Source: Syntrophorhabdaceae bacterium (lineage in GTDB: Bacteria; Desulfobacterota; Syntrophorhabdia; Syntrophorhabdales; Syntrophorhabdaceae). Taken from it: a stretch of 64,000 nucleotides of DNA. Below are positions 51,581-63,173 of this stretch, piece after piece. Both the position numbers and the translations under genes were made by a program. Position 1 is the stretch's first letter; every line of letters starts with the position of its first letter. The stretch spans positions 768,001-832,000 of the forward strand of contig CAXXUO010000001.1 of assembly GCA_963666485.2 (NCBI GenBank), read 5' to 3'. The notes under the pieces are model-generated. The model ran no database searches. It had not been told where the DNA came from and saw nothing but the letters and a program-made list of their open reading frames with translations.

Positions 51581-51587
51581 ATCGCAT

Positions 51588-51669
51588 GCGAGAGTGGCGG
51601 AACTGGCAGACGCACTGGACTTAGGATCCAGCGGGTTACACCATAGGGGTTCAAGTCCCCTCTCTCGCA
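51588..51669 (+). tRNA. tRNA-Leu (anticodon TAG), CCA not encoded
   Basis: Acceptor GCGAGAG/CTCTCGC plus A, anticodon arm CTGGA-CTTAGGA-TCCAG, long variable arm, T-loop GGTTCAAGTCC. Confidence 0.95.
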
Positions 51670-52126
51670 TTCAAGTAATATCAAGGTCTTACCCCTTTTG
51701 TCCACGTCTTTAGACCTTCGGTCTTTCGGCGATTGCCAAAAAAACAAAATGGCTTTTTAACCTGGTTTGTTGGGAACGTCCCTTGACTATTCCTTGACTA
51801 TTCTGGGAAGACCAGGGATCTGTCCTGAAATTCAACCTCATCGTGTTTCGCCCTTGCATTTACCGAACAGCGGATGCCGCTGAATACACGCCTTGCAAAT
51901 ATGCGCAGCCCGCAGTGTTGCCCTCATATTCTTTGATTGGCTTCCTTGTCGTTCTAAAAGGAAGGAAGCTGGTCAGGGATATTCGGCTCCCCATCGTCTC
52001 CTGGAATAACCATCATGATATGGCAGGCCCGGTAACGCTGATAGTGTTAATCCTTCACGTATTGGGGCAATTTTGATCGAGTTGTCGCAGTTCTTGTTTC
52101 CCGGTATAATGTATAAGGTGTTCACA

Positions 52127-54499
52127 ATGAAGAGGGTGCCGAAAAATGGGAAACCGTTGCTACCGGCTAAACGGAAGCCCGTTGATCAGGAAATGCTCGG
52201 AAGCGAAGCAAGGCTAAAGAGCATATTCCGCGCGGCGCCCGTAGGCATCGGCCTCGTGATCAACCGGGTCATTATGGAGGCGAACGATCTTTTGTGCAGG
52301 ATGACAGGCTATTCCAAGGAAGAATTGATCGGGCAGAGCGCAAGGCTTCTTTACCCTTCCGACGAGGACTTCGACTTTGTTGGGACAGAAAAATACCGGC
52401 AGATCGCCAATCGGGGAACGGGTTCGGTAGAGACCCGTTGGCGGCGAAAGGATGGAACCGTTATCGACGTGCTTCTGAGTTCCGGCGCACTGGATCCCTC
52501 CGATCTGTCGATCGGCGTAACATTCACCGCACTGGATATCACCGACCGCAAGCGTATGGAGAGTGCACTGCGATCGTCTCACGAACAAACGAGGATCGCC
52601 CAGGCGGCCGCTAATGCAGGCTTGTGGGACTGGGACATGCAGACGGGAAAACTGGAGTGGTCGGAACAGTTTTTTTCGTTGATCGGCCTGTCTCCCGCTG
52701 CCGAACCGTCCTTCGACACATGGTTAAAAGTAGTGCATCCTGAAGACCGGGAACCTGCCATGAAAAAGATACAAAAAGCCATTGATGAACATATACGGCT
52801 CGAGAATGAGTACCGGATTACAAGGTCCGACGGCGAGGAGCGTTGGCTAGCTGCGCTCGGTGACACGTTTTACAGTGATACCGGGAAACCCGAACGCATG
52901 ATCGGTATCTGCATCGATATCACCGAACGCAAGCGCATAGAGGAAGAACTGCGAACATCTCGCGACGAATTCGAGGCGCAGGTCTTAGAACGCACCGCGG
53001 AACTCAGGCATCGGGCGGAACTGCTCGACCTCGCACACGACGCCATCATTGTAACGGATATGGAGGGCCGGATCATCTTCTGGAACCGGGGCGCGGAAAA
53101 GATATACGGCTGGACGCCTGATGAGGTTGAGGGCTCGGTTATCTATGAACTCCTCAAGACCAGGTCCCTCCCGTCCTTTAATGATCTAAACAGCATCCTC
53201 CTGGATCAAAATACGTGGGAAGGCGAACTGGAGCATACCACGAAAGACGGCCGGACCTTGAGCATTCTCAGCCGGTGGGTTTTCCAGAGGGACGAGGCAG
53301 GGAACCCGATCGCTATTATGCGGATAAACCTCGACATCACGGCAGCGAAACAGGCGGAAGAATCCCTCCGCCAGGCCCACAAGATGGAGGCCATCGGCAC
53401 CCTCGCGGGAGGCATAGCCCACGACTTCAACAACATCCTTGCCGCCATCATCGGCTTCACCGAGATGGCCATAGAGGACGTGCCCGACCGCCCCCTGGTA
53501 GAGAGGAACCTCCAAAACGTCATGACCTCGGCCACGCGGGCACGGGAACTCGTGAAGCAGATCCTTGCCTTTTCCCGCAAGACGGGCTACGAGAGGTCAC
53601 CCATCGCCCTTACCCCCGTCGTGGAAGAGACGGTCAAGCTCCTTAGGGCCTCGGTCCCTGCCACGATCGACATGAAGTTTTCCGCCGGTGCCACCTCCGA
53701 CACGGTGACCGCCACCCCCGTCGAGGTCCAGCAGATCGTCATGAACCTCGCCACCAATGCTGTCCTTGCCCTGGAGGACCGCAAGGGCTCTCTCGTGATC
53801 GCCCTTTCCGACACCGACTTCGAACCCGACGCCTTTACCCTCGACCAGGCGTCCCGGGAGTACCTCCAGATCATGGTGAAGGACACCGGCGCGGGTATGA
53901 CCCCCGAGGTGATGAAACGTATCTTCGAACCCTTCTTCACCACCCGGGAGGTGGGCAAGGGCTCCGGCATGGGCCTCGCGGTAGTCTATGGGATCGTGAA
54001 CGACCTGGGCGGCACGATCGCCGTTGAGAGCGAACCGGGCAAGGGCTCCACCTTCCGGGCCTTCCTGCCGAAGGTGAAGGCAAAGGCCAAAGAACAGGTG
54101 GAACGGGTGGAACTGCCCCGGGGGAACGAACGGGTCCTCTTCGTCGACGACGAACCCCTGCTCGTTGACTGGGGTAAAGAGACACTGGAGAGACTGGGGT
54201 ATAAAGTAACGACTGCAACTGACAGCACAAAGGCCCTCCAGACCTTCTCGGCCGACCCCTCCCGGTTCGACCTCGTCATCACCGATCAGGCCATGCCGCG
54301 GATGGCCGGCTCGGACCTCTGCGCTAAGCTCCTGCGTATCAGGGGCGACATCCCTATCATCCTGTGCACCGGTCACTCGGAGACGGTATCGCCGGAGAAG
54401 GCCAGGGAGATGGGTATCCGGGAATTCCTCATGAAGCCCCTCAGGAGGAACGAACTGGCATCCGCCATCAGGAGGGTGCTGGGTGGAGACGGGGGATAA
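52127..54499 (+). CDS. Multi-PAS hybrid sensor histidine kinase/response regulator
   Basis: Three PAS domains, 'GGIAHDFNN', 'NLATNA', 'GSGMGL', REC 'TDQAMP'; TTGTCG-N17-TATAAT promoter at 52082-52110. Confidence 0.93.
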   Translation: MKRVPKNGKPLLPAKRKPVDQEMLGSEARLKSIFRAAPVGIGLVINRVIMEANDLLCRMTGYSKEELIGQSARLLYPSDEDFDFVGTEKYRQIANRGTGSVETRWRRKDGTVIDVLLSSGALDPSDLSIGVTFTALDITDRKRMESALRSSHEQTRIAQAAANAGLWDWDMQTGKLEWSEQFFSLIGLSPAAEPSFDTWLKVVHPEDREPAMKKIQKAIDEHIRLENEYRITRSDGEERWLAALGDTFYSDTGKPERMIGICIDITERKRIEEELRTSRDEFEAQVLERTAELRHRAELLDLAHDAIIVTDMEGRIIFWNRGAEKIYGWTPDEVEGSVIYELLKTRSLPSFNDLNSILLDQNTWEGELEHTTKDGRTLSILSRWVFQRDEAGNPIAIMRINLDITAAKQAEESLRQAHKMEAIGTLAGGIAHDFNNILAAIIGFTEMAIEDVPDRPLVERNLQNVMTSATRARELVKQILAFSRKTGYERSPIALTPVVEETVKLLRASVPATIDMKFSAGATSDTVTATPVEVQQIVMNLATNAVLALEDRKGSLVIALSDTDFEPDAFTLDQASREYLQIMVKDTGAGMTPEVMKRIFEPFFTTREVGKGSGMGLAVVYGIVNDLGGTIAVESEPGKGSTFRAFLPKVKAKAKEQVERVELPRGNERVLFVDDEPLLVDWGKETLERLGYKVTTATDSTKALQTFSADPSRFDLVITDQAMPRMAGSDLCAKLLRIRGDIPIILCTGHSETVSPEKAREMGIREFLMKPLRRNELASAIRRVLGGDGG

Positions 54500-54835
54500 C
54501 AGTCGTTGCAATCAAGGGGCAGCCTGTTACTATTGGCAATCCGTCCCTGCCTGGTTCCAATCAGCTATTTATTAGTAGGTGAAAGTGTTGATCGCCCGTC
54601 AACGGCGAACAACGAAATCGCGGCCGGAATCATCAATTAAACATTACTTTACAAACTCCTGAAGAGGTATAGTGCTGCGTTCCGTGACTGTTGAAGTGTA
54701 ACTATTTTGTAACTAATGACCCCTCAAATACCTCTCAAAATCCAACATAATCCAAACATCGTGACGCCGGGCAACCTGCTGATATAGATCATACTTCATT
54801 GATATAACTGATTATTCTCGAATCCGCTGTTTTGA

Positions 54836-54891
54836 ACTTAGGATCCAGCGGGTTACACCATAGGGGTTCAAGTCCCCTCTCTCGCATTCAA
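54836..54891 (+). repeat. attR-like duplicate of the tRNA-Leu 3' half
   Basis: Identical to 51619-51674. Confidence 0.9.
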
Positions 54892-54970
54892 TAATAACAA
54901 TGGCCCGCAGCTTCTCATCGTACCCGGTGTTTTCCTTTTCGTTTCATGCCGATAATATGGTAATCTCTGG

Positions 54971-55022
54971 GTGGCGATGGGGTCCGCCTTTTAACCGCCT
55001 GCCCTGGCTAATGACTCCTACC
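54971..55022 (+). ncRNA. Fluoride riboswitch (crcB motif)
   Basis: GGCGATGGGGTCCGCC..TAACCGCC..GGCTAATGACTCCTAC. P1 GGCG/CGCC, pseudoknot GGGGT (54979-83) with ACTCC (55014-18), P3 GCC/GGC. Confidence 0.9.
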
Positions 55023-55076
55023 TGTATCAGATCTCCTGTACGCTTGTTGTTTACGGGGACAATTTATGGGAGGAGC

Positions 55077-56762
55077 ATGTTGAAAGATCCTATAGCCAAC
55101 GCTGCTTCCGAGACGGTCCAGACTTCGATCGGCTCGATCCTGCAGACCATCAGGCACATATCCACAGAATTCAATATTGTATCTCTCGGGCGCCAGATCG
55201 CGGCATGCGAGGTGGTGTCTGTCGAAAACCCCGTCATTGACGTCGCCATACTCGGTCAGTTCAAGGCGGGGAAAAGCTCGTTTGTCAATAGCCTCATCGG
55301 GGTCCCGGTCCTTCCCGTGAGAGCGATCCCCGTGACCACTGTTATCACCCGTCTGAGCTATGGGCCCCGGCAGAGGTCTATCGTCACCTATTACGACGGG
55401 AAGGAGTCCGAGGTTGGCTTTTCGGAGATTGAGGAATATATCTCCGAGGCAAAAAACAGGGCCAACGAGAAGAATGTCGATGTGGTCGATATCGAACTGC
55501 CTTCCCTTGAACCTTACGCCGGGCTTCGTTTCGTCGACACCCCGGGATTGGGGAGCATTTTTAAATACAATACCGCGATCTCAGAAGAATGGCTGCCCGA
55601 GGTCGGGGCCGCCATCATTGCTATCAGCTCCGATAGGCCGCTTGCGGAAAACGACCTGAACCTGATCAGGGAACTCATGGAATTTACTCCCAGGGTTGTT
55701 CTGCTCCTTACGAAAGTGGACCTTCTTTCCCGGGAACAGCAGGAAGAGGTTATCGCATTCTTCAGGGACTCACTGAAACACGAATTCGGCAAGGACTTCC
55801 CGACACTCCTCTATTCGACGCTGAAAGATACGGAGCTCTATAAGCCCGCCCTGAATGAATTATTCCTTGACCTGTCCCGGAACCGCGACACGGAATTCAG
55901 AGGGATTCTCCACCATAAGGTCCGTTCACTTGCACGGCAATGCGTGAGCTATCTCGCCATTGCCCTCAGGGTATCCGAAACGGAAGACAAAGACCGCGAG
56001 GACCTGAAGAGGATCATTCTCGATGAACGGGTTAACTTTGAATTGATGCAGACAGAGCTTTCTCTCGTGGCGAGAGAGAACAAGGAAAAAACGAGGGAGT
56101 TCGTCGCCGGCTATCTTACCGCTACCCACAGGATGAAACTTGTCCAGAAGCTGACTGTCAGACTGTCCTCTGAAATGCCCCGGTGGAAAGGCAACCTCTG
56201 GAGGATCACCCGCCAGTACGAAGAATGGCTCATGGAGAATATGGTTGAGGAGATGGACCATATATCGAGGGCAGATTACAAGCATTTCTTTGGGACCCTC
56301 AGAAAAGCACACAGCAGCATATCCCGGTCCGTTGAACTCTTCAGGACCCTTCTTGACAAGAACATCGAAAAAGTGCTCGGGATTGCGCCGAACAGCGTCA
56401 ACTGGATCATTGAAGTATCCGAACCGGCCCATCCCGACGTCCAATTTACGAAGACCTTCGATTTCCACTTCGATACACTCTGGTTTCTGTTTCCCATGTT
56501 CATATTCCGCCGTGTTTTCGAGAAGCATTTTCTGAAGCAGATCGCCCGCGTCACAGACGTGCATCTGTCCCGTCTCGCCTATCAGTGGGAAGTCCGCATT
56601 AATAGAACCATAGACGAGATAAAGAAACAGGCATTGGAATATGTGCAGAATGAACTTTCAACGATCGATGCGCTGGTGTCCGGCAAAACAGGGCAGACGG
56701 AGCGGATCAAGGATCTGATAAGGGCCCTTGGGGAAAACATTGCCGTTATTGAGAAACTTTAA
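55077..56762 (+). CDS. Bacterial dynamin-like GTPase
   Basis: G1 'GQFKAGKSS', G2 'PVTT', G3 'DTPG', G4 'TKVD', helical stalk with hydrophobic 'LWFLFPMFIF'; SD GGAGGAG. Confidence 0.88.
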   Translation: MLKDPIANAASETVQTSIGSILQTIRHISTEFNIVSLGRQIAACEVVSVENPVIDVAILGQFKAGKSSFVNSLIGVPVLPVRAIPVTTVITRLSYGPRQRSIVTYYDGKESEVGFSEIEEYISEAKNRANEKNVDVVDIELPSLEPYAGLRFVDTPGLGSIFKYNTAISEEWLPEVGAAIIAISSDRPLAENDLNLIRELMEFTPRVVLLLTKVDLLSREQQEEVIAFFRDSLKHEFGKDFPTLLYSTLKDTELYKPALNELFLDLSRNRDTEFRGILHHKVRSLARQCVSYLAIALRVSETEDKDREDLKRIILDERVNFELMQTELSLVARENKEKTREFVAGYLTATHRMKLVQKLTVRLSSEMPRWKGNLWRITRQYEEWLMENMVEEMDHISRADYKHFFGTLRKAHSSISRSVELFRTLLDKNIEKVLGIAPNSVNWIIEVSEPAHPDVQFTKTFDFHFDTLWFLFPMFIFRRVFEKHFLKQIARVTDVHLSRLAYQWEVRINRTIDEIKKQALEYVQNELSTIDALVSGKTGQTERIKDLIRALGENIAVIEKL

Positions 56763-56860
56763 TTGCTTGTTCATGCCTTTCAGTTCCGCGGCGAACTCAG
56801 CAATTTTCATTTCAGGCCTGGATCTTTGCCCGGTTCAGGCCTTCGATAAAGGATACACGT

Positions 56861-58054
56861 ATGGAACAACATTTTTTTGTGGCCGCGGTCTGGCTTGGCA
56901 TGGCGGTCTTTTCGGCGGCAATTGCGTATCATTTGCGGATTTCTATCGCGTTAATCGAGATATGCCTCGGAGTGGTGGCGGCGGCAGTCGCGGTGTGGAC
57001 CGGCAAACAGGAGGCCCTGGGCTCGAATCTCGACTGGTTGCGCTTCCTGGCATCATCAGGAGCGATATTGTTAACTTTCCTGGCGGGAGCCGAACTGGAC
57101 CCAAGGGTAATGCGAACAAAAATGAAAGAAGTTACGGTCGTTGGCCTCGTCGGATTCCTTGCACCTTTTCTCGGCTGCACGGCGCTGGCTTATTACGGAT
57201 TGAAGTGGAATGCGCAGGCGAGCTGGTTATGCGGCATAGCGTTGTCGACTACCTCGATGGCGGTGGTTTATGCAGTTATGCTTGAGACGGGATTGAATAA
57301 AACAAGTTTCGGCAAAGGCATCCTCGGTGCCTGTTTTATCAATGACCTGGGAACCGTTATAGCCTTAGGTCTCATTTTTGCGCCATTCACTTTTCGGACT
57401 CTCATTTTTGTCTCCGTTTGTGTGTTGGTGCTCGGGATATTGCCAAAGATAACAGACCTCATAACCCGTGTTTACGCTCATCGCACGGCTGCCATCAGGA
57501 CCAAATGGGTCATGCTCATCCTTTTTGGCCTCGGCGGCCTCGCCCTGTGGTCCGGCAGTGAGGCTGTGCTTCCCGCGTACATCATGGGTATGGTCATGGC
57601 GGGCGGCGCCGCAAGAGACACCCTCTGGATCCGCCGGCTGCGAACACTGACGATCGGCCTTTTGACACCATTCTACTTTCTGCGTGCCGGGACCCTTGTT
57701 TCTTTAAATGCCCTTGTAGCCGCACCCGCTCTTTTTCTACTATTGCTGGGCGGTAAAGTAGCTACGAAGACCATCGGTCTTTATCCCGTTATCGCCGGGT
57801 TCCGGAAAAAAAATAATGAACGGTGGTATTATACGCTTCTCATGTCAACAGGTCTGACCTTCGGGACGATCTCGGCAATATACGGGTATTCTCACGGCAT
57901 CGTGACGCAGGGGCAATACTCTTTCCTTGTTGCCGCTGTTATCGGAAGTGCCGTCATACCCACATTAATAGCCGGCCATGCATTTCTGCCTACGCATCTT
58001 TTACCGCACAAAGAACCGAAGATTCCCGAGGATGCTATGGATGAAGAAGGGTAG
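56861..58054 (+). CDS. Cation:proton antiporter (Na+/H+ exchanger family)
   Basis: About 12 TM helices, 'FLAGAELD', 'ALSTTSMAVV', 'FINDLG', 'PFYFLRAG'. Confidence 0.88.
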   Translation: MEQHFFVAAVWLGMAVFSAAIAYHLRISIALIEICLGVVAAAVAVWTGKQEALGSNLDWLRFLASSGAILLTFLAGAELDPRVMRTKMKEVTVVGLVGFLAPFLGCTALAYYGLKWNAQASWLCGIALSTTSMAVVYAVMLETGLNKTSFGKGILGACFINDLGTVIALGLIFAPFTFRTLIFVSVCVLVLGILPKITDLITRVYAHRTAAIRTKWVMLILFGLGGLALWSGSEAVLPAYIMGMVMAGGAARDTLWIRRLRTLTIGLLTPFYFLRAGTLVSLNALVAAPALFLLLLGGKVATKTIGLYPVIAGFRKKNNERWYYTLLMSTGLTFGTISAIYGYSHGIVTQGQYSFLVAAVIGSAVIPTLIAGHAFLPTHLLPHKEPKIPEDAMDEEG

Positions 58055-58175
58055 GTCATTGGCCCGTCGTCTTTAATTATCCGAGGCCTTCTGCCCAAGT
58101 TTTATAAGACCAATGTCCTATTGACACCCTGGTTATCGCCGTAGTAAGAATTTCAAAAAAAAGAGGGGGCGGCTC

Positions 58176-59714
58176 ATGAAGATATTTTGCCAATGCCTGG
58201 TTTATTTCGTTTTGCTTACGATGATCTTAACTGCACCGACCGGAATTGGCGCACAAGAAAGCAGGTTACCATCCGCTTCACCAAAATATTCACCCAGCGT
58301 CCCGGCGAAGATCACGACGCCCGATACGGTCGAAACGCGCATTGGCACGCTGCGTTTCAAGGACGGCGCCCCCGATCCCGCGACCGTCCGGCTGGCCTAT
58401 GACCAGATTGATTTTAACCGCAGTGTCGAGGCGTTTTTGAAGGGTATATCGGCAACATCCGTTTATGCAGCATGCAAGGGTTTTGAAGAAGCGGGTATCA
58501 AGACGAACCAGGGTATCGGTATAACGGAAGACCTTCTCGATGCCCGTTCGCTGTTTTTGACACCCAACACCACCACCGTCTACGTCATGGCGTGTATGAA
58601 CCTGAAGGACGGGCCGATGGTGCTGCGGGTGCCGCCGCGGGTCCTGGGCCCCGTCGATGACGCAAATTTCGGCTGGGTAACAGACGTAGGATTGACAGGC
58701 CCGGACAAGGGGGCAGGCGGAGATTACTTATTCGTGCCGCCCGGTTACAAGGGACCCTTGCCCAAAAAAGGCTACCACATCGCCCGACCGGCCACCAACC
58801 GTTTGATCATCTTTTATCGCGCATTCGTTGAAAAGGGCAATGTCGCCGCGGCGGTGGCGGGTGTCAAGGCAAAAGCCGCCCTGTTCCCCCTGTCCCAGGC
58901 CGTCAAGCCGCCGGCAACTGCGTTCGTCAATTTTTCAGGCGTCAAATTCAACACGATCAGCGCCAATGACTTCAGCTTCTATGAGGAGTTGAACGCGGTC
59001 GTGCAGAACGAACCCGCCGATTGGGTGGATCCGGAATCGGTGGGCCTGTACGCATCGATCGGCATCCGCAAAGGGCAAGCATTCGCGCCGGACGCCCGGA
59101 TGAAAAAGATCCTGACGGAATCGGCTGCTGTAGCGAACGCAATAGCGCGCGCCGACGTTTTCGCCCCGCGTGATCCGCGGACCTTCATCTATCCCGACCG
59201 GCAATGGATAACACCCTTTGTGGGCGGCAGCTACAAGTTCATCGAAGGAGCAGAGCGACTTCTTGACGCTCGGACAATGTTCTTCTATTTCGCCACGGGT
59301 ATCACGCCTGCCATGAGCGAAGCGAAACCGGGCACAGGCTCTGCCTACGCAGGAGTATTCCGCGACTCGACGGGGAATTACCTGGATGGCGGCCGTACGT
59401 ACAAAATTACTCTGCCGGGACCGATCCCGGCGAAAGACTTTTGGGCTCTTACGGTCTATGACAATCAGACCCGTTCGCTTCTGCCCACAGACCAGAAAAA
59501 AGCAGGCATCGACAGCAATATGTCCGCCATCCGGAAGAATCCCGATGGCGGAGTCACCGTTTGGCTCGGACCTAAACCACCGGCCGGCCAGGAAGGGAAC
59601 TGGATCCAGACCATGCCCGGTAAGGGCTATAGTATCATTCTCAGGCTTTACGGGCCGCTCGAGCCATGGTTTAAAAAGACCTGGCGGCCGGGTGACCCTG
59701 AGGTGCAGCCCTGA
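58176..59714 (+). CDS. Secreted DUF1254/DUF1214 protein
   Basis: Signal peptide, 'PNTTTVY', 'GPDKGAGGDYLFVPP', 'FWALTVYD', 'LRLYGP'. Confidence 0.88.
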   Translation: MKIFCQCLVYFVLLTMILTAPTGIGAQESRLPSASPKYSPSVPAKITTPDTVETRIGTLRFKDGAPDPATVRLAYDQIDFNRSVEAFLKGISATSVYAACKGFEEAGIKTNQGIGITEDLLDARSLFLTPNTTTVYVMACMNLKDGPMVLRVPPRVLGPVDDANFGWVTDVGLTGPDKGAGGDYLFVPPGYKGPLPKKGYHIARPATNRLIIFYRAFVEKGNVAAAVAGVKAKAALFPLSQAVKPPATAFVNFSGVKFNTISANDFSFYEELNAVVQNEPADWVDPESVGLYASIGIRKGQAFAPDARMKKILTESAAVANAIARADVFAPRDPRTFIYPDRQWITPFVGGSYKFIEGAERLLDARTMFFYFATGITPAMSEAKPGTGSAYAGVFRDSTGNYLDGGRTYKITLPGPIPAKDFWALTVYDNQTRSLLPTDQKKAGIDSNMSAIRKNPDGGVTVWLGPKPPAGQEGNWIQTMPGKGYSIILRLYGPLEPWFKKTWRPGDPEVQP

Positions 59715-59785
59715 TAGCACGATGTCCTTGATGGGCCGAACAAGAATAAGGATCTAAATTGATTTCAAGAAATATCATAACGCAA

Positions 59786-60247
59786 ATGCAAACCGGGGGC
59801 GGCAATATCGCGCGCGAGTACAAGACAATTATTGCGCTGCTTCTTTTAGCCATGCTCTGCATGACAGGAATAGCCGGGTATTCGGCAGACGCGGTGTCAG
59901 CTGAGCCATCACAAGCCGGAGGACCGTCTTTTGCACAAAAAGAGCTCAAGGTCATCGAAGGGCGCTGGGTCCGGCCGGACGGGGGATACATTCTCGAACT
60001 GAGGGACGTAAAAAAGGACGGAACAATTTCCGCGGCTTATTTTAACCCCCGGCCGATTAACGTCTACCGTGCCCGGGCGGACATAAAGAAAGGCAAGATC
60101 ACCGTCCGGGTTGAGTTGCGCGATATTAATTATCCCGGTTCGATCTACACGCTGCACTATGATCCGGGCCCCGACCGTCTGAAGGGAAAATACTTTCAGG
60201 CCGTGGAGAAGCAGACGTTCGATATTGAATTTGTGAGGTCCAGGTAA
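59786..60247 (+). CDS. Secreted hypothetical protein; start uncertain
   Basis: Hydrophobic signal segment, beta-rich 'GRWVRPDGGY..AAYFNPRPI..YPGSIYTL'. Confidence 0.65.
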   Translation: MQTGGGNIAREYKTIIALLLLAMLCMTGIAGYSADAVSAEPSQAGGPSFAQKELKVIEGRWVRPDGGYILELRDVKKDGTISAAYFNPRPINVYRARADIKKGKITVRVELRDINYPGSIYTLHYDPGPDRLKGKYFQAVEKQTFDIEFVRSR

Positions 60248-60279
60248 CCGGGTAAAACTTCTCATTCTTGTGGCTAAAT

Positions 60280-60309
60280 CATAGGGGTTCAAGCCCCCTC
60301 TCTCGCATT
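60280..60309 (+). repeat. Second att-like duplicate of the tRNA-Leu 3' end
   Basis: 29/30 match to 51642-51671. Confidence 0.85.
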
Positions 60310-60382
60310 AAACCGATATCACAGGACGGTCACTCTCGAATCGGGCACAACGATGAAGGGTTTATAGCGGCTTTTATACCGG

Positions 60383-60436: not shown

Positions 60437-60883
60437 ATGAGAAACGAATCGTACATTCAAAGACTGCGCGAGACGGGATTGAAGGTGACTCCGCAGAGAA
60501 TCGCCATCATAGATGCCGTTGAGAAATCAGGATATCTGCATCCGAGCGTCATGCAGATATATAAGGAAGCCAGAAAGAACAGCCCGAAACTCAGTCTGTC
60601 GACAACGTACGCGACACTGAAAGAATTGTCCCGGCTGCGCCTGATAAAAACACTGCAATTTGACAGAAAAGAGAACAGGTACGAGTTGGATCTGGAAGAC
60701 CATATCAATCTGATTTGTAATAGGTGTGGTAGAATAACTGATTATACGTCTTCCGAATCTGCCGACCGCGGAAAGATCCGGAAACGTACGGGATTCCAGG
60801 TTGTGGACAGCAGGATGGAATTTTACGGGATATGCTCGGAGTGCTCTTCCGGTACCAGCCAAGGAGGAGAGGAACGATCCTGA
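60437..60883 (+). CDS. perR: Fur-family regulator, probably PerR
   Basis: 'GLKVTPQR', 'HPS', 'SLSTTY', 'HINLICNRC', 'GICSEC'; directly upstream of katG. Confidence 0.8.
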   Translation: MRNESYIQRLRETGLKVTPQRIAIIDAVEKSGYLHPSVMQIYKEARKNSPKLSLSTTYATLKELSRLRLIKTLQFDRKENRYELDLEDHINLICNRCGRITDYTSSESADRGKIRKRTGFQVVDSRMEFYGICSECSSGTSQGGEERS

Positions 60884-60920
60884 GCGGTAACCTTTAACGA
60901 AGTACAAAAATTTTTTCGTC

Positions 60921-60941
60921 ATAATCAGGAATCATTCCTGA
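60921..60941. promoter_or_regulatory. Palindromic operator upstream of katG
   Basis: TCAGGAAT-C-ATTCCTGA; 60921-60938 is the exact reverse complement of 60417-60434. Confidence 0.75.

Positions 60942-63173
<2,232 letters not shown>

Follow-up and report, generated by a model that had tools for sequence, protein, structure and literature searches.

A fluoride riboswitch in the genome of a Syntrophorhabdaceae bacterium (Desulfobacterota) precedes a gene for a dynamin-like GTPase (denoted DLP), which is followed on the same strand by a gene for a cation/H+ antiporter of the CPA superfamily. The stretch analyzed, 64,000 nucleotides of contig CAXXUO010000001.1 (positions 768,001 to 832,000; assembly GCA_963666485.2), is referred to below as the window, and positions are counted within it unless a locus is named. 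Probably (a probability of about 0.7), these elements constitute a fluoride-inducible DLP-antiporter operon that is controlled by a translational switch in a genome devoid of the known fluoride exporters, Fluc (CrcB) and CLC-F. The unit brings a new class of effector under a fluoride riboswitch, on an exporter-free background, and points to a branch of the fluoride response that is independent of the two known exporters. Its components are the following:

54916..54939, plus strand: terminator-like hairpin with a T run, just 5' of the riboswitch (consensus scan only)
54964..55027, plus strand: fluoride riboswitch aptamer (crcB motif; Rfam RF01734, 51.9 bits, E = 1.7e-11)
55028..55076, plus strand: expression platform, with a hairpin at 55033-55059 and the Shine-Dalgarno sequence (RNA folds)
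55077..56762, plus strand: dynamin-like GTPase, 561 aa (Pfam Dynamin_N, 3.1e-23), with an alternative start at TTG 55080
56763..56860, plus strand: intergenic gap of 98 bp between the DLP and antiporter genes
56861..58054, plus strand: CPA-superfamily cation/H+ antiporter, 397 aa (Pfam Na_H_Exchanger, PF00999, 3.5e-31)

The match to RF01734 spans the entire model (positions 1-64 of 64) and scores 51.9 bits against a gathering score of 34, which bears out the near-consensus crcB aptamer of a preliminary description made from the sequence alone. Because it is the sole match in a search of the whole genome (3.77 Mb in 10 contigs, 99.1% complete), a chance match can be excluded. The aptamer lies upstream of the DLP gene, as described, but its end is separated from the start codon (ATG 55077 or TTG 55080) by 49-52 nt rather than about 55 nt. 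The hairpin at 54916-54939 may shield the unit from upstream transcription. In the minimum-energy fold of positions 54960-55100 (-48.4 kcal/mol, z = -2.87), ACUCCUAC, the 3' pseudoknot strand of the aptamer, pairs with the Shine-Dalgarno sequence GGGAGGAG (55068-55075), with a small hairpin in between. The same pairing is present in the folds of 11 of 13 family leaders, and blocking the pseudoknot strands in the window leader costs 12.6 kcal/mol. A consensus scan found no terminator-like site in the platform (55028-55076); in a relative from the Bacillota (L019), a terminator takes the place of the Shine-Dalgarno pairing. The riboswitch occupies the 5' leader, with a platform that in the fold overlaps the 3' strand of the aptamer, and from the folds we infer translational ON control of the DLP by fluoride.

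The listed open reading frame (ORF) of the DLP gene, 54900-56762, opens 5' of the aptamer; the actual start is either ATG 55077 or TTG 55080, the latter being aligned with the GTG start of the closest homologues. The assignment to the dynamin-like GTPases, already made in the preliminary description, is secured by a Dynamin_N score of 83 bits against a cut-off of 27, and the nearest solved chains by sequence are IniA (3.2e-17), followed by the Campylobacter DLP pair and BDLP. The G1-G4 motifs are intact: residues G60-S68, T87/T91, D154-G157 and K213/D215, that is, the P-loop, the switch threonines, DTPG and TKVD, are the invariant motifs of the DLP clade in an alignment of 25 sequences, and the hydrophobic segment WFLFPMFIF (469-477) is invariant in the same 25. 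An AlphaFold (AF2) model (pLDDT 82, pTM 0.70) comprises a G domain and long helical bundles, with helices of the stalk or trunk type predicted at 252-434 and 463-560. In the model WFLFPMFIF falls within a helix-Pro-helix element that follows a low-confidence stretch, and this hydrophobic hairpin probably dips into the membrane. Among the top ranks of a Foldseek search are IniA (1.4e-19), BDLP (1.8e-18), Campylobacter DLP1/2, Mx and mitofusins; the full-length matches to IniA and BDLP have a probability of 1.00 and low TM scores, 0.32-0.34, which may reflect hinge positions. Judging by sequence and model, the DLP is a short member of the bacterial dynamin-like GTPases and belongs to the IniA/BDLP type. 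Its gene is single-copy in the genome. IniA and DynA are stress-induced bacterial dynamins that maintain or reseal membranes and, by analogy, the DLP likely keeps the cytoplasmic membrane intact, or remodels it, under fluoride stress. A role as a fluoride sink is ruled out on stoichiometric grounds, as the protein would bind few F- ions in the face of millimolar fluoride.

The co-oriented gene that follows after 98 bp encodes an exchanger, as initially described: the Na_H_Exchanger match covers residues 15-369 at 108.9 bits (cut-off 26.2). The protein scores 87 bits with the CPA2 model TIGR00932, under its cut-off of 238.3, and its transmembrane segment TM5 reads N161-D162 where NapA, the nearest solved chain (4bwz), has a D-D pair; because it reaches neither this cut-off nor this pair, it is filed under the CPA superfamily only. 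Residues D162, K299 and K303 are invariant in eight riboswitch-linked antiporters, so that cation/H+ exchange is the economical reading for this protein. The earlier suggestion that the antiporter exports F- finds no support, as the clade keeps the cation-binding aspartate of CPA antiporters. A published review assigns pH homeostasis under an HF-driven acid load to riboswitch-linked antiporters (PMC11139923). Another possibility is that H+ import coupled to cation export by the antiporter would diminish the pH gradient by which F- is trapped in the cell.

Neither of the known exporters was detected in the window genome, which extends to the whole genome the absence of crcB/fluC and eriC first noticed in the window. 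The search for CrcB (PF02537) gave no match, with 3 candidates scored, and that for CLC (PF00654) gave none either; applied to 14 control genomes, these searches detected CrcB in 11 and CLC in 12. Across the family, CrcB is present in 1 of 61 genomes versus 64 of 151 genomes of the phylum (a set at least 90% complete). CLC genes occur in 33 of the 61. The signatures of CLC-F are given as GNNLI/GMGLI, GREGT/V and GEVTP in the same review (PMC11139923), and they are found in 0 of 10 sampled family CLCs. The motif G(K/R)EGP is present in all 10 proteins, four of about 600 aa and six of about 450 aa, and GxFAP in addition in the four of about 600 aa. CrcB occurs in 3 of 13 DLP-bearing genomes from other phyla, and the 13 CLC genes of these genomes are all devoid of the CLC-F signatures. 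The presence of CLC-F in the relatives can accordingly be rejected, 23 of 23 inspected CLC genes being devoid of the three signatures. Since the genome and nearly the whole family are without Fluc/CrcB and CLC-F, the operon appears to be the only recognizable fluoride response of the organism.

The link between the riboswitch and both genes was traced in a census of 61 family genomes, including that of the window, with downstream genes classed by tblastn and Pfam. A riboswitch match at E 1e-3 or better is present in 35 of the 61 genomes, and 43 matches score above the gathering threshold. Of these 43, most precede the DLP (29, two of the copies looking truncated) and antiporter orthologues, 59-72% identical, come second (8), which places both genes in the fluoride regulon and is in line with the fluoride-stress module inferred initially; a MutS-like gene and a hydrogenase large-subunit-like gene are targeted once each, no riboswitch precedes CrcB or CLC, and four are without an assigned target (two at contig ends, two before unrelated or opposite-strand genes). 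DLP genes are present in 30 of the 61 genomes, and 29 of 29 DLP loci that retain the 5' end of the gene and upstream DNA carry the riboswitch. The G034 copy, whose 5' end is cut by a contig end, and the 3' pieces G001:C191, G003:C32 and G060:C65 are left out of this count. The antiporter clade is found in 10 of the 61 genomes. For nine loci upstream DNA is available, and at eight of these a riboswitch exceeds the gathering score; the eight include the window and L069, in both of which the switch stands before the DLP. At the ninth locus (L096; G041:C201), a sub-threshold riboswitch-like element of 21.2 bits (L096:1656-1718), located about 130 nt upstream of the antiporter gene, may be a decaying or divergent switch.

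The two units are adjacent in the window genome (G000), L069, L005, where the order is riboswitch-DLP-enolase-two ORFs-riboswitch-antiporter, and G023:C134, where both are on one strand within 5 kb; they share an operon in L016 and L023. The L069 locus consists of a riboswitch, a 127-aa DLP remnant, a 78-bp gap and the antiporter, with no other riboswitch there. The order riboswitch-dynamin-antiporter, which had been offered as a potentially recurrent arrangement, is thus confined to the window and L069 with its DLP remnant; the antiporter precedes the DLP in L016 and L023. In this family, the fluoride regulon includes the DLP and the antiporter independently of each other, and the response of each gene to fluoride is the conserved trait.

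Outside the family census, DLP relatives were searched in one genome per species, which yielded 27 loci from at least six phyla. Thirteen bear the titles Syntrophorhabdaceae, Syntrophorhabdus or unclassified Deltaproteobacteria (54-82% identity), and 14 come from Bacillota, Ignavibacteria, Bacteroidota, Spirochaetes and Chlorobiota (31-42% identity). At the Rfam gathering threshold, the fluoride riboswitch is present in 22 of the 27 loci; in 20 of these it lies on the DLP strand and heads the DLP or its co-oriented operon, and in L015 and L017 riboswitches are present in other arrangements. In a sub-threshold scan of the five remaining loci, L018 alone gave a weak match (24.6 bits), before DUF6062-DLP; the others are L013, a 3' fragment located at a contig end, L021 and L022, which extend only a little way upstream, and L026, with no upstream DNA. 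The operon partners of the DLP are genes already known from the fluoride regulon. Enolase lies after it in L005, L014 and L015 and is part of the same operon in L023; CrcB is in the DLP operon of L024, Na_H_Exchanger genes are in those of L016 and L023, and genes for MFS transporters in those of L016 and L018, with MutS-like pairs and a universal stress protein nearby in L017 and L018. In the Spirochaete locus L023 (1027-5614), the order is riboswitch-antiporter-enolase-74-aa ORF-DLP, and the antiporter is 64-67% identical to the family copies (about 66% at the nucleotide level), which suggests that the module was transferred between phyla. Comparison of the loci indicates that the conserved link is that of the riboswitch to the DLP and not the three-part order.

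Several further associations were noted at these loci. At four loci from three phyla (L016:2729-3940, L018:5622-6815, L019:430-1635 and L067:1382-2596), the fluoride-switched DLP or antiporter has a gene for an MFS transporter as its neighbour; the four proteins are 41-69% identical to one another and may represent a conserved MFS subfamily of the fluoride regulon. The best match in the window genome, at 29% identity, is probably not an orthologue. In the Bacillota, a DUF6062 gene is located directly before the DLP or divergent from it (L015:3098-3829, L017:841-1698, L018:3134-3925). Paired MutS_V-only genes follow a fluoride riboswitch in L017 and in the family genome G005 (L066). The segment L015:2768-3904 holds three fluoride riboswitch matches in 1.1 kb, two on the minus strand (glutamine synthetase, DUF6062) and one on the plus strand without an obvious gene. 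A His_Phos_1 gene of the phosphoglycerate-mutase type is convergent just after the DLP in L002:4027-4659 and L013:803-1435, and a gene with the metallo-beta-lactamase fold is found just after the DLP in L006-L008 and L021, in two phyla.

The unit of the window is embedded in one of two tandem islets at a tRNA-Leu gene, whose features are these:

51587..51670, plus strand: tRNA-Leu (anticodon TAG), the islet anchor (ARAGORN; Rfam tRNA, 56.7 bits)
51616..51674, plus strand: direct repeat copy 1, the 3' part of tRNA-Leu, 59 nt (reference copy)
51843..54499, plus strand: islet 1 cargo, a 77-aa ORF and an 808-aa PAS-histidine kinase-receiver hybrid (Pfam PAS_3, HisKA, HATPase_c, Response_reg)
54833..54891, plus strand: direct repeat copy 2, 98% identical; end of islet 1 and start of islet 2
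58176..59714, plus strand: DUF1254/DUF1214 protein, 512 aa, co-oriented islet 2 cargo (Pfam)
59759..60247, plus strand: 162-aa ORF, the last of islet 2 (ORF list; no family match)
60254..60312, plus strand: direct repeat copy 3, 73% identical, best kept in its 3' 30 nt; end of islet 2

Islet 2 thus contains the riboswitch, the DLP, the antiporter, the DUF1254/DUF1214 protein and the 162-aa ORF. There is no terminator-like site between the antiporter gene and the DUF1254/DUF1214 gene, and no link of the latter to fluoride was found. The G+C content is 0.50-0.56 in islet 2 versus 0.59-0.64 in the flanks. None of the ORFs of 51675-60312, across both islets, encodes an integrase or other mobility protein. 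Because of the tRNA-end repeats, the lower G+C content and neighbours that differ in nearly every relative, the riboswitch unit looks mobile, as the preliminary description had it; the tRNA islet proposed there also stands, the unit being in the second of the two. The islets themselves seem to be an insertion that is old and has become fixed. When 19 further genomes of the genus were searched at the DNA level, there were 232 matches beyond those listed; among the matches listed, several relatives have tRNA-Leu ends repeated within one contig (e.g., G060:C115, G051:C17, G067:C7), the closest match to the unit (G055, 83%) covers only positions 54953-56712, that is, riboswitch and DLP, and none covers the antiporter. 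The kinase part of islet 1 (53357-54484, within the ORF 52073-54499) has many paralogues of 64-83% nucleotide identity in the genome and the genus, among them C2:112568-113691 and C1:844062-845186 of the window genome, and belongs to an expanded sensor-kinase family. Directly after the last tRNA-end repeat, at 60437-63173, are genes for a Fur-family regulator and a KatG-like catalase-peroxidase, presumably the original neighbourhood of the tRNA-Leu gene.

Taken together, these data can be accommodated in the following scheme. When fluoride is absent, ACUCCUAC would pair with the Shine-Dalgarno sequence GGGAGGAG and translation would be blocked; when fluoride is bound, ACUCCUAC would be locked in the pseudoknot and the ribosome-binding site set free, making the element a translational ON switch. 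The first product, the DLP, would serve membrane upkeep or remodelling when fluoride is a stress. Transcription of the DLP gene probably continues into the second gene, and the antiporter would adjust the proton/cation balance, given that entry of HF acidifies the cytoplasm and that trapping of F- depends on the pH gradient. DLP and antiporter would have been united under one riboswitch in the tRNA-Leu islet. A broader and decidedly speculative extension is that lineages that have lost Fluc and CLC-F tolerate fluoride with no dedicated exporter at all, through a membrane-acting DLP combined with a CPA clade that lowers the gradient or carries F-, the DLP perhaps being locked by Mg- or Al-fluoride in an assembled, transition-state form and hence acting as both sensor and effector. 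Such exporter-free tolerance would fit the scarcity of CrcB in the family and the exporter counts in the DLP-bearing genomes of other phyla.

Several observations weigh against the operon with a translational switch. With the pseudoknot strands blocked, four of five Shine-Dalgarno bases of the window leader are still paired, and RNAalifold on 13 leaders recovers only the two aptamer stems, leaving the platform without covariation support. The Shine-Dalgarno pairing itself carries little weight because CUCC is also the anti-Shine-Dalgarno sequence of 16S rRNA, which makes complementarity near-automatic. The antiporters of relatives are nearly always behind a riboswitch of their own, unlike the window copy, which could be driven by its own promoter in the 98-bp gap. 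As for the exporters, metagenome-assembled genomes can miss small genes such as crcB. Furthermore, the DLP is absent from 31 of the 61 family genomes, which are likewise without exporters; therefore, the DLP is not a general or simple substitute for an exporter.

One alternative is that the riboswitch controls the DLP alone, the antiporter having lost its own switch upon insertion and being expressed constitutively or from a promoter in the gap, so that the pairing would be an accident of islet assembly. Such an origin is conceivable, if on balance unlikely. It would account for the antiporters behind their own riboswitches at seven loci of relatives (L034, L035, L045, L061, L067, L073 and L074) and for the failure to find an antiporter orthologue in 11 other sampled genomes of the genus; likewise, the match to the closest relative, among those listed, stops inside the DLP gene at position 56712, and the 98-bp gap has no nucleotide similarity to the antiporter leaders of relatives, or to the gap of L069, beyond the Shine-Dalgarno region. 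However, consensus scans, which are weak tools, detect neither a promoter-like nor a terminator-like site on the plus strand of the gap, and no riboswitch is found there at the Rfam gathering threshold. The L069 locus has the same layout and, in the absence of a second riboswitch, its antiporter must depend on the upstream switch. Cotranscription of the antiporter with the DLP seems likely; a search of sequencing runs turned up no RNA run containing this DNA.

The two other alternatives concern the functions of the proteins. The CPA clade, alone or aided by the DLP, could be a third kind of fluoride exporter that replaces Fluc and CLC-F, which would suit a genome without CrcB and CLC, the ties of the clade to fluoride riboswitches (8 of 9 assessable loci), its passage across phyla (the L023 copy being 64-67% identical to those of the family) and its divergence in the ion site (N-D versus the D-D of NapA) and in the CPA2 score, which is below the cut-off. 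We nevertheless regard this as improbable: the invariance of D162, K299 and K303 is what cation/H+ exchange would lead one to expect, and no CPA member is known to us to carry halides. Moreover, the clade occurs in 10 of 61 family genomes, yet 60 of 61 are without CrcB, and the published role is pH homeostasis (PMC11139923). The DLP might not be protective but a fluoride-sensitive GTPase that is overproduced to offset inhibition by metal fluorides, as proposed for enolase. GTPases bind AlF4- and MgF3- as transition-state mimics, and enolase, a classic target of fluoride, accompanies the DLP at the four loci named above. This possibility appears very slight, however, given that the DLP gene is single-copy, that 31 of 61 family genomes manage without it and that all 29 assessable family copies are behind the switch; with all copies switched, the protein would be absent without fluoride, and there would be no housekeeping activity to rescue. 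A fluoride-inducible operon of a membrane-acting DLP and a cation/H+ antiporter thus remains the preferred interpretation.

Apart from the fluoride riboswitch, the window contains two tandem nhaA-I RNAs on the plus strand (5-62 and 142-199, 48.4 bits each). The nhaA-I class senses cations and is usually found before nhaA; here the RNAs precede ORFs with pentapeptide repeats and DUF4412 (229-678 and 740-1321), not an NhaA antiporter.

Fluoride riboswitches are described as heading genes for crcB/Fluc, eriC-F/CLC-F, Na+/H+ antiporters, enolase or mutS-like proteins (PMC2864571; PMC11139923). The crcB section of Weinberg 2010 lists mutS, K+ or Cl- transport and formate hydrogen lyase and, within that section, no GTPase (PMC2864571). 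The association of the riboswitch with Na+/H+ antiporters has already been published (PMC11139923). A link between the fluoride riboswitch and a dynamin or other GTPase was not found in the searchable full-text literature, although it could be listed in Baker 2012 or its supplement. The present analysis adds the family census and the family-wide lack of the known exporters, together with an antiporter clade that has switches of its own and the merging of both genes into one operon on a tRNA islet.

Bacterial dynamins are widespread, and most are without a known natural trigger; the riboswitch provides the DLP clade with a defined and easily applied inducer, so that DLP function is directly testable through fluoride. 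Exporters take first place in the published view: in a representative set of bacteria, more than 85% are reported to have one, and those without tend to be reduced symbionts (PMC11139923). Here, a free-living anaerobe with a 3.8-Mb genome and almost its whole family sense fluoride without a known exporter, and the genes most commonly switched on in the family are those for a membrane GTPase and a proton/cation exchanger. Tolerance without export also bears on fluoride toxicity during the anaerobic breakdown of organofluorine compounds.

In comparison with known systems, the window unit shares with the classical RF01734 units the full-length near-consensus aptamer, the location in a 5' leader, an apparent ON-type response and the antiporter in the operon, and genes for enolase, MutS-like proteins and CrcB appear in the operons of its relatives. 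It differs from these units in that a dynamin-like GTPase comes first among its targets and is the best conserved of them, and in that exporters are missing from the operon, from the genome and from nearly the entire family. Unlike in terminator-based fluoride switches, control appears from the folds to be exerted via a freed Shine-Dalgarno sequence. The islets resemble tRNA-integrated genomic islands in having direct repeats of the tRNA 3' end at their borders, a lower G+C content than the flanks and a tandem arrangement of two islets, and relatives have repeated tRNA-Leu ends at a site of the same kind; they depart from typical islands of this kind in the absence of a mobility gene from either islet and in the degenerate third repeat (73%).

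Among the proteins, the antiporter has the Na_H_Exchanger fold over its full length, like NapA of Thermus thermophilus and the CPA2 family, which includes KefB/KefC, and keeps the unwound segments of TM4 and TM11 and the TM5 aspartate of NapA. Unlike NapA, it has N-D in place of D-D in TM5; it is without a KTN/RCK domain and belongs to a clade tied to fluoride riboswitches. The DLP was compared with the bacterial dynamins IniA of Mycobacterium (6j72), BDLP of Nostoc (2j68/2j69), DLP1/2 of Campylobacter (5owv) and DynA of Bacillus. In common with these proteins, it has a G domain, helical bundles and a hydrophobic element near the far end. It is set apart from the IniA/BDLP group by an identity of just 14-18%, by its short, single-gene form of 561 aa with its own invariant WFLFPMFIF and, as the leader implies, by an inducer, fluoride, that would be sensed by RNA. 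Induction by a specific chemical stress is also a property of iniA, and in this respect the fluoride-switched DLP resembles its mycobacterial counterpart.

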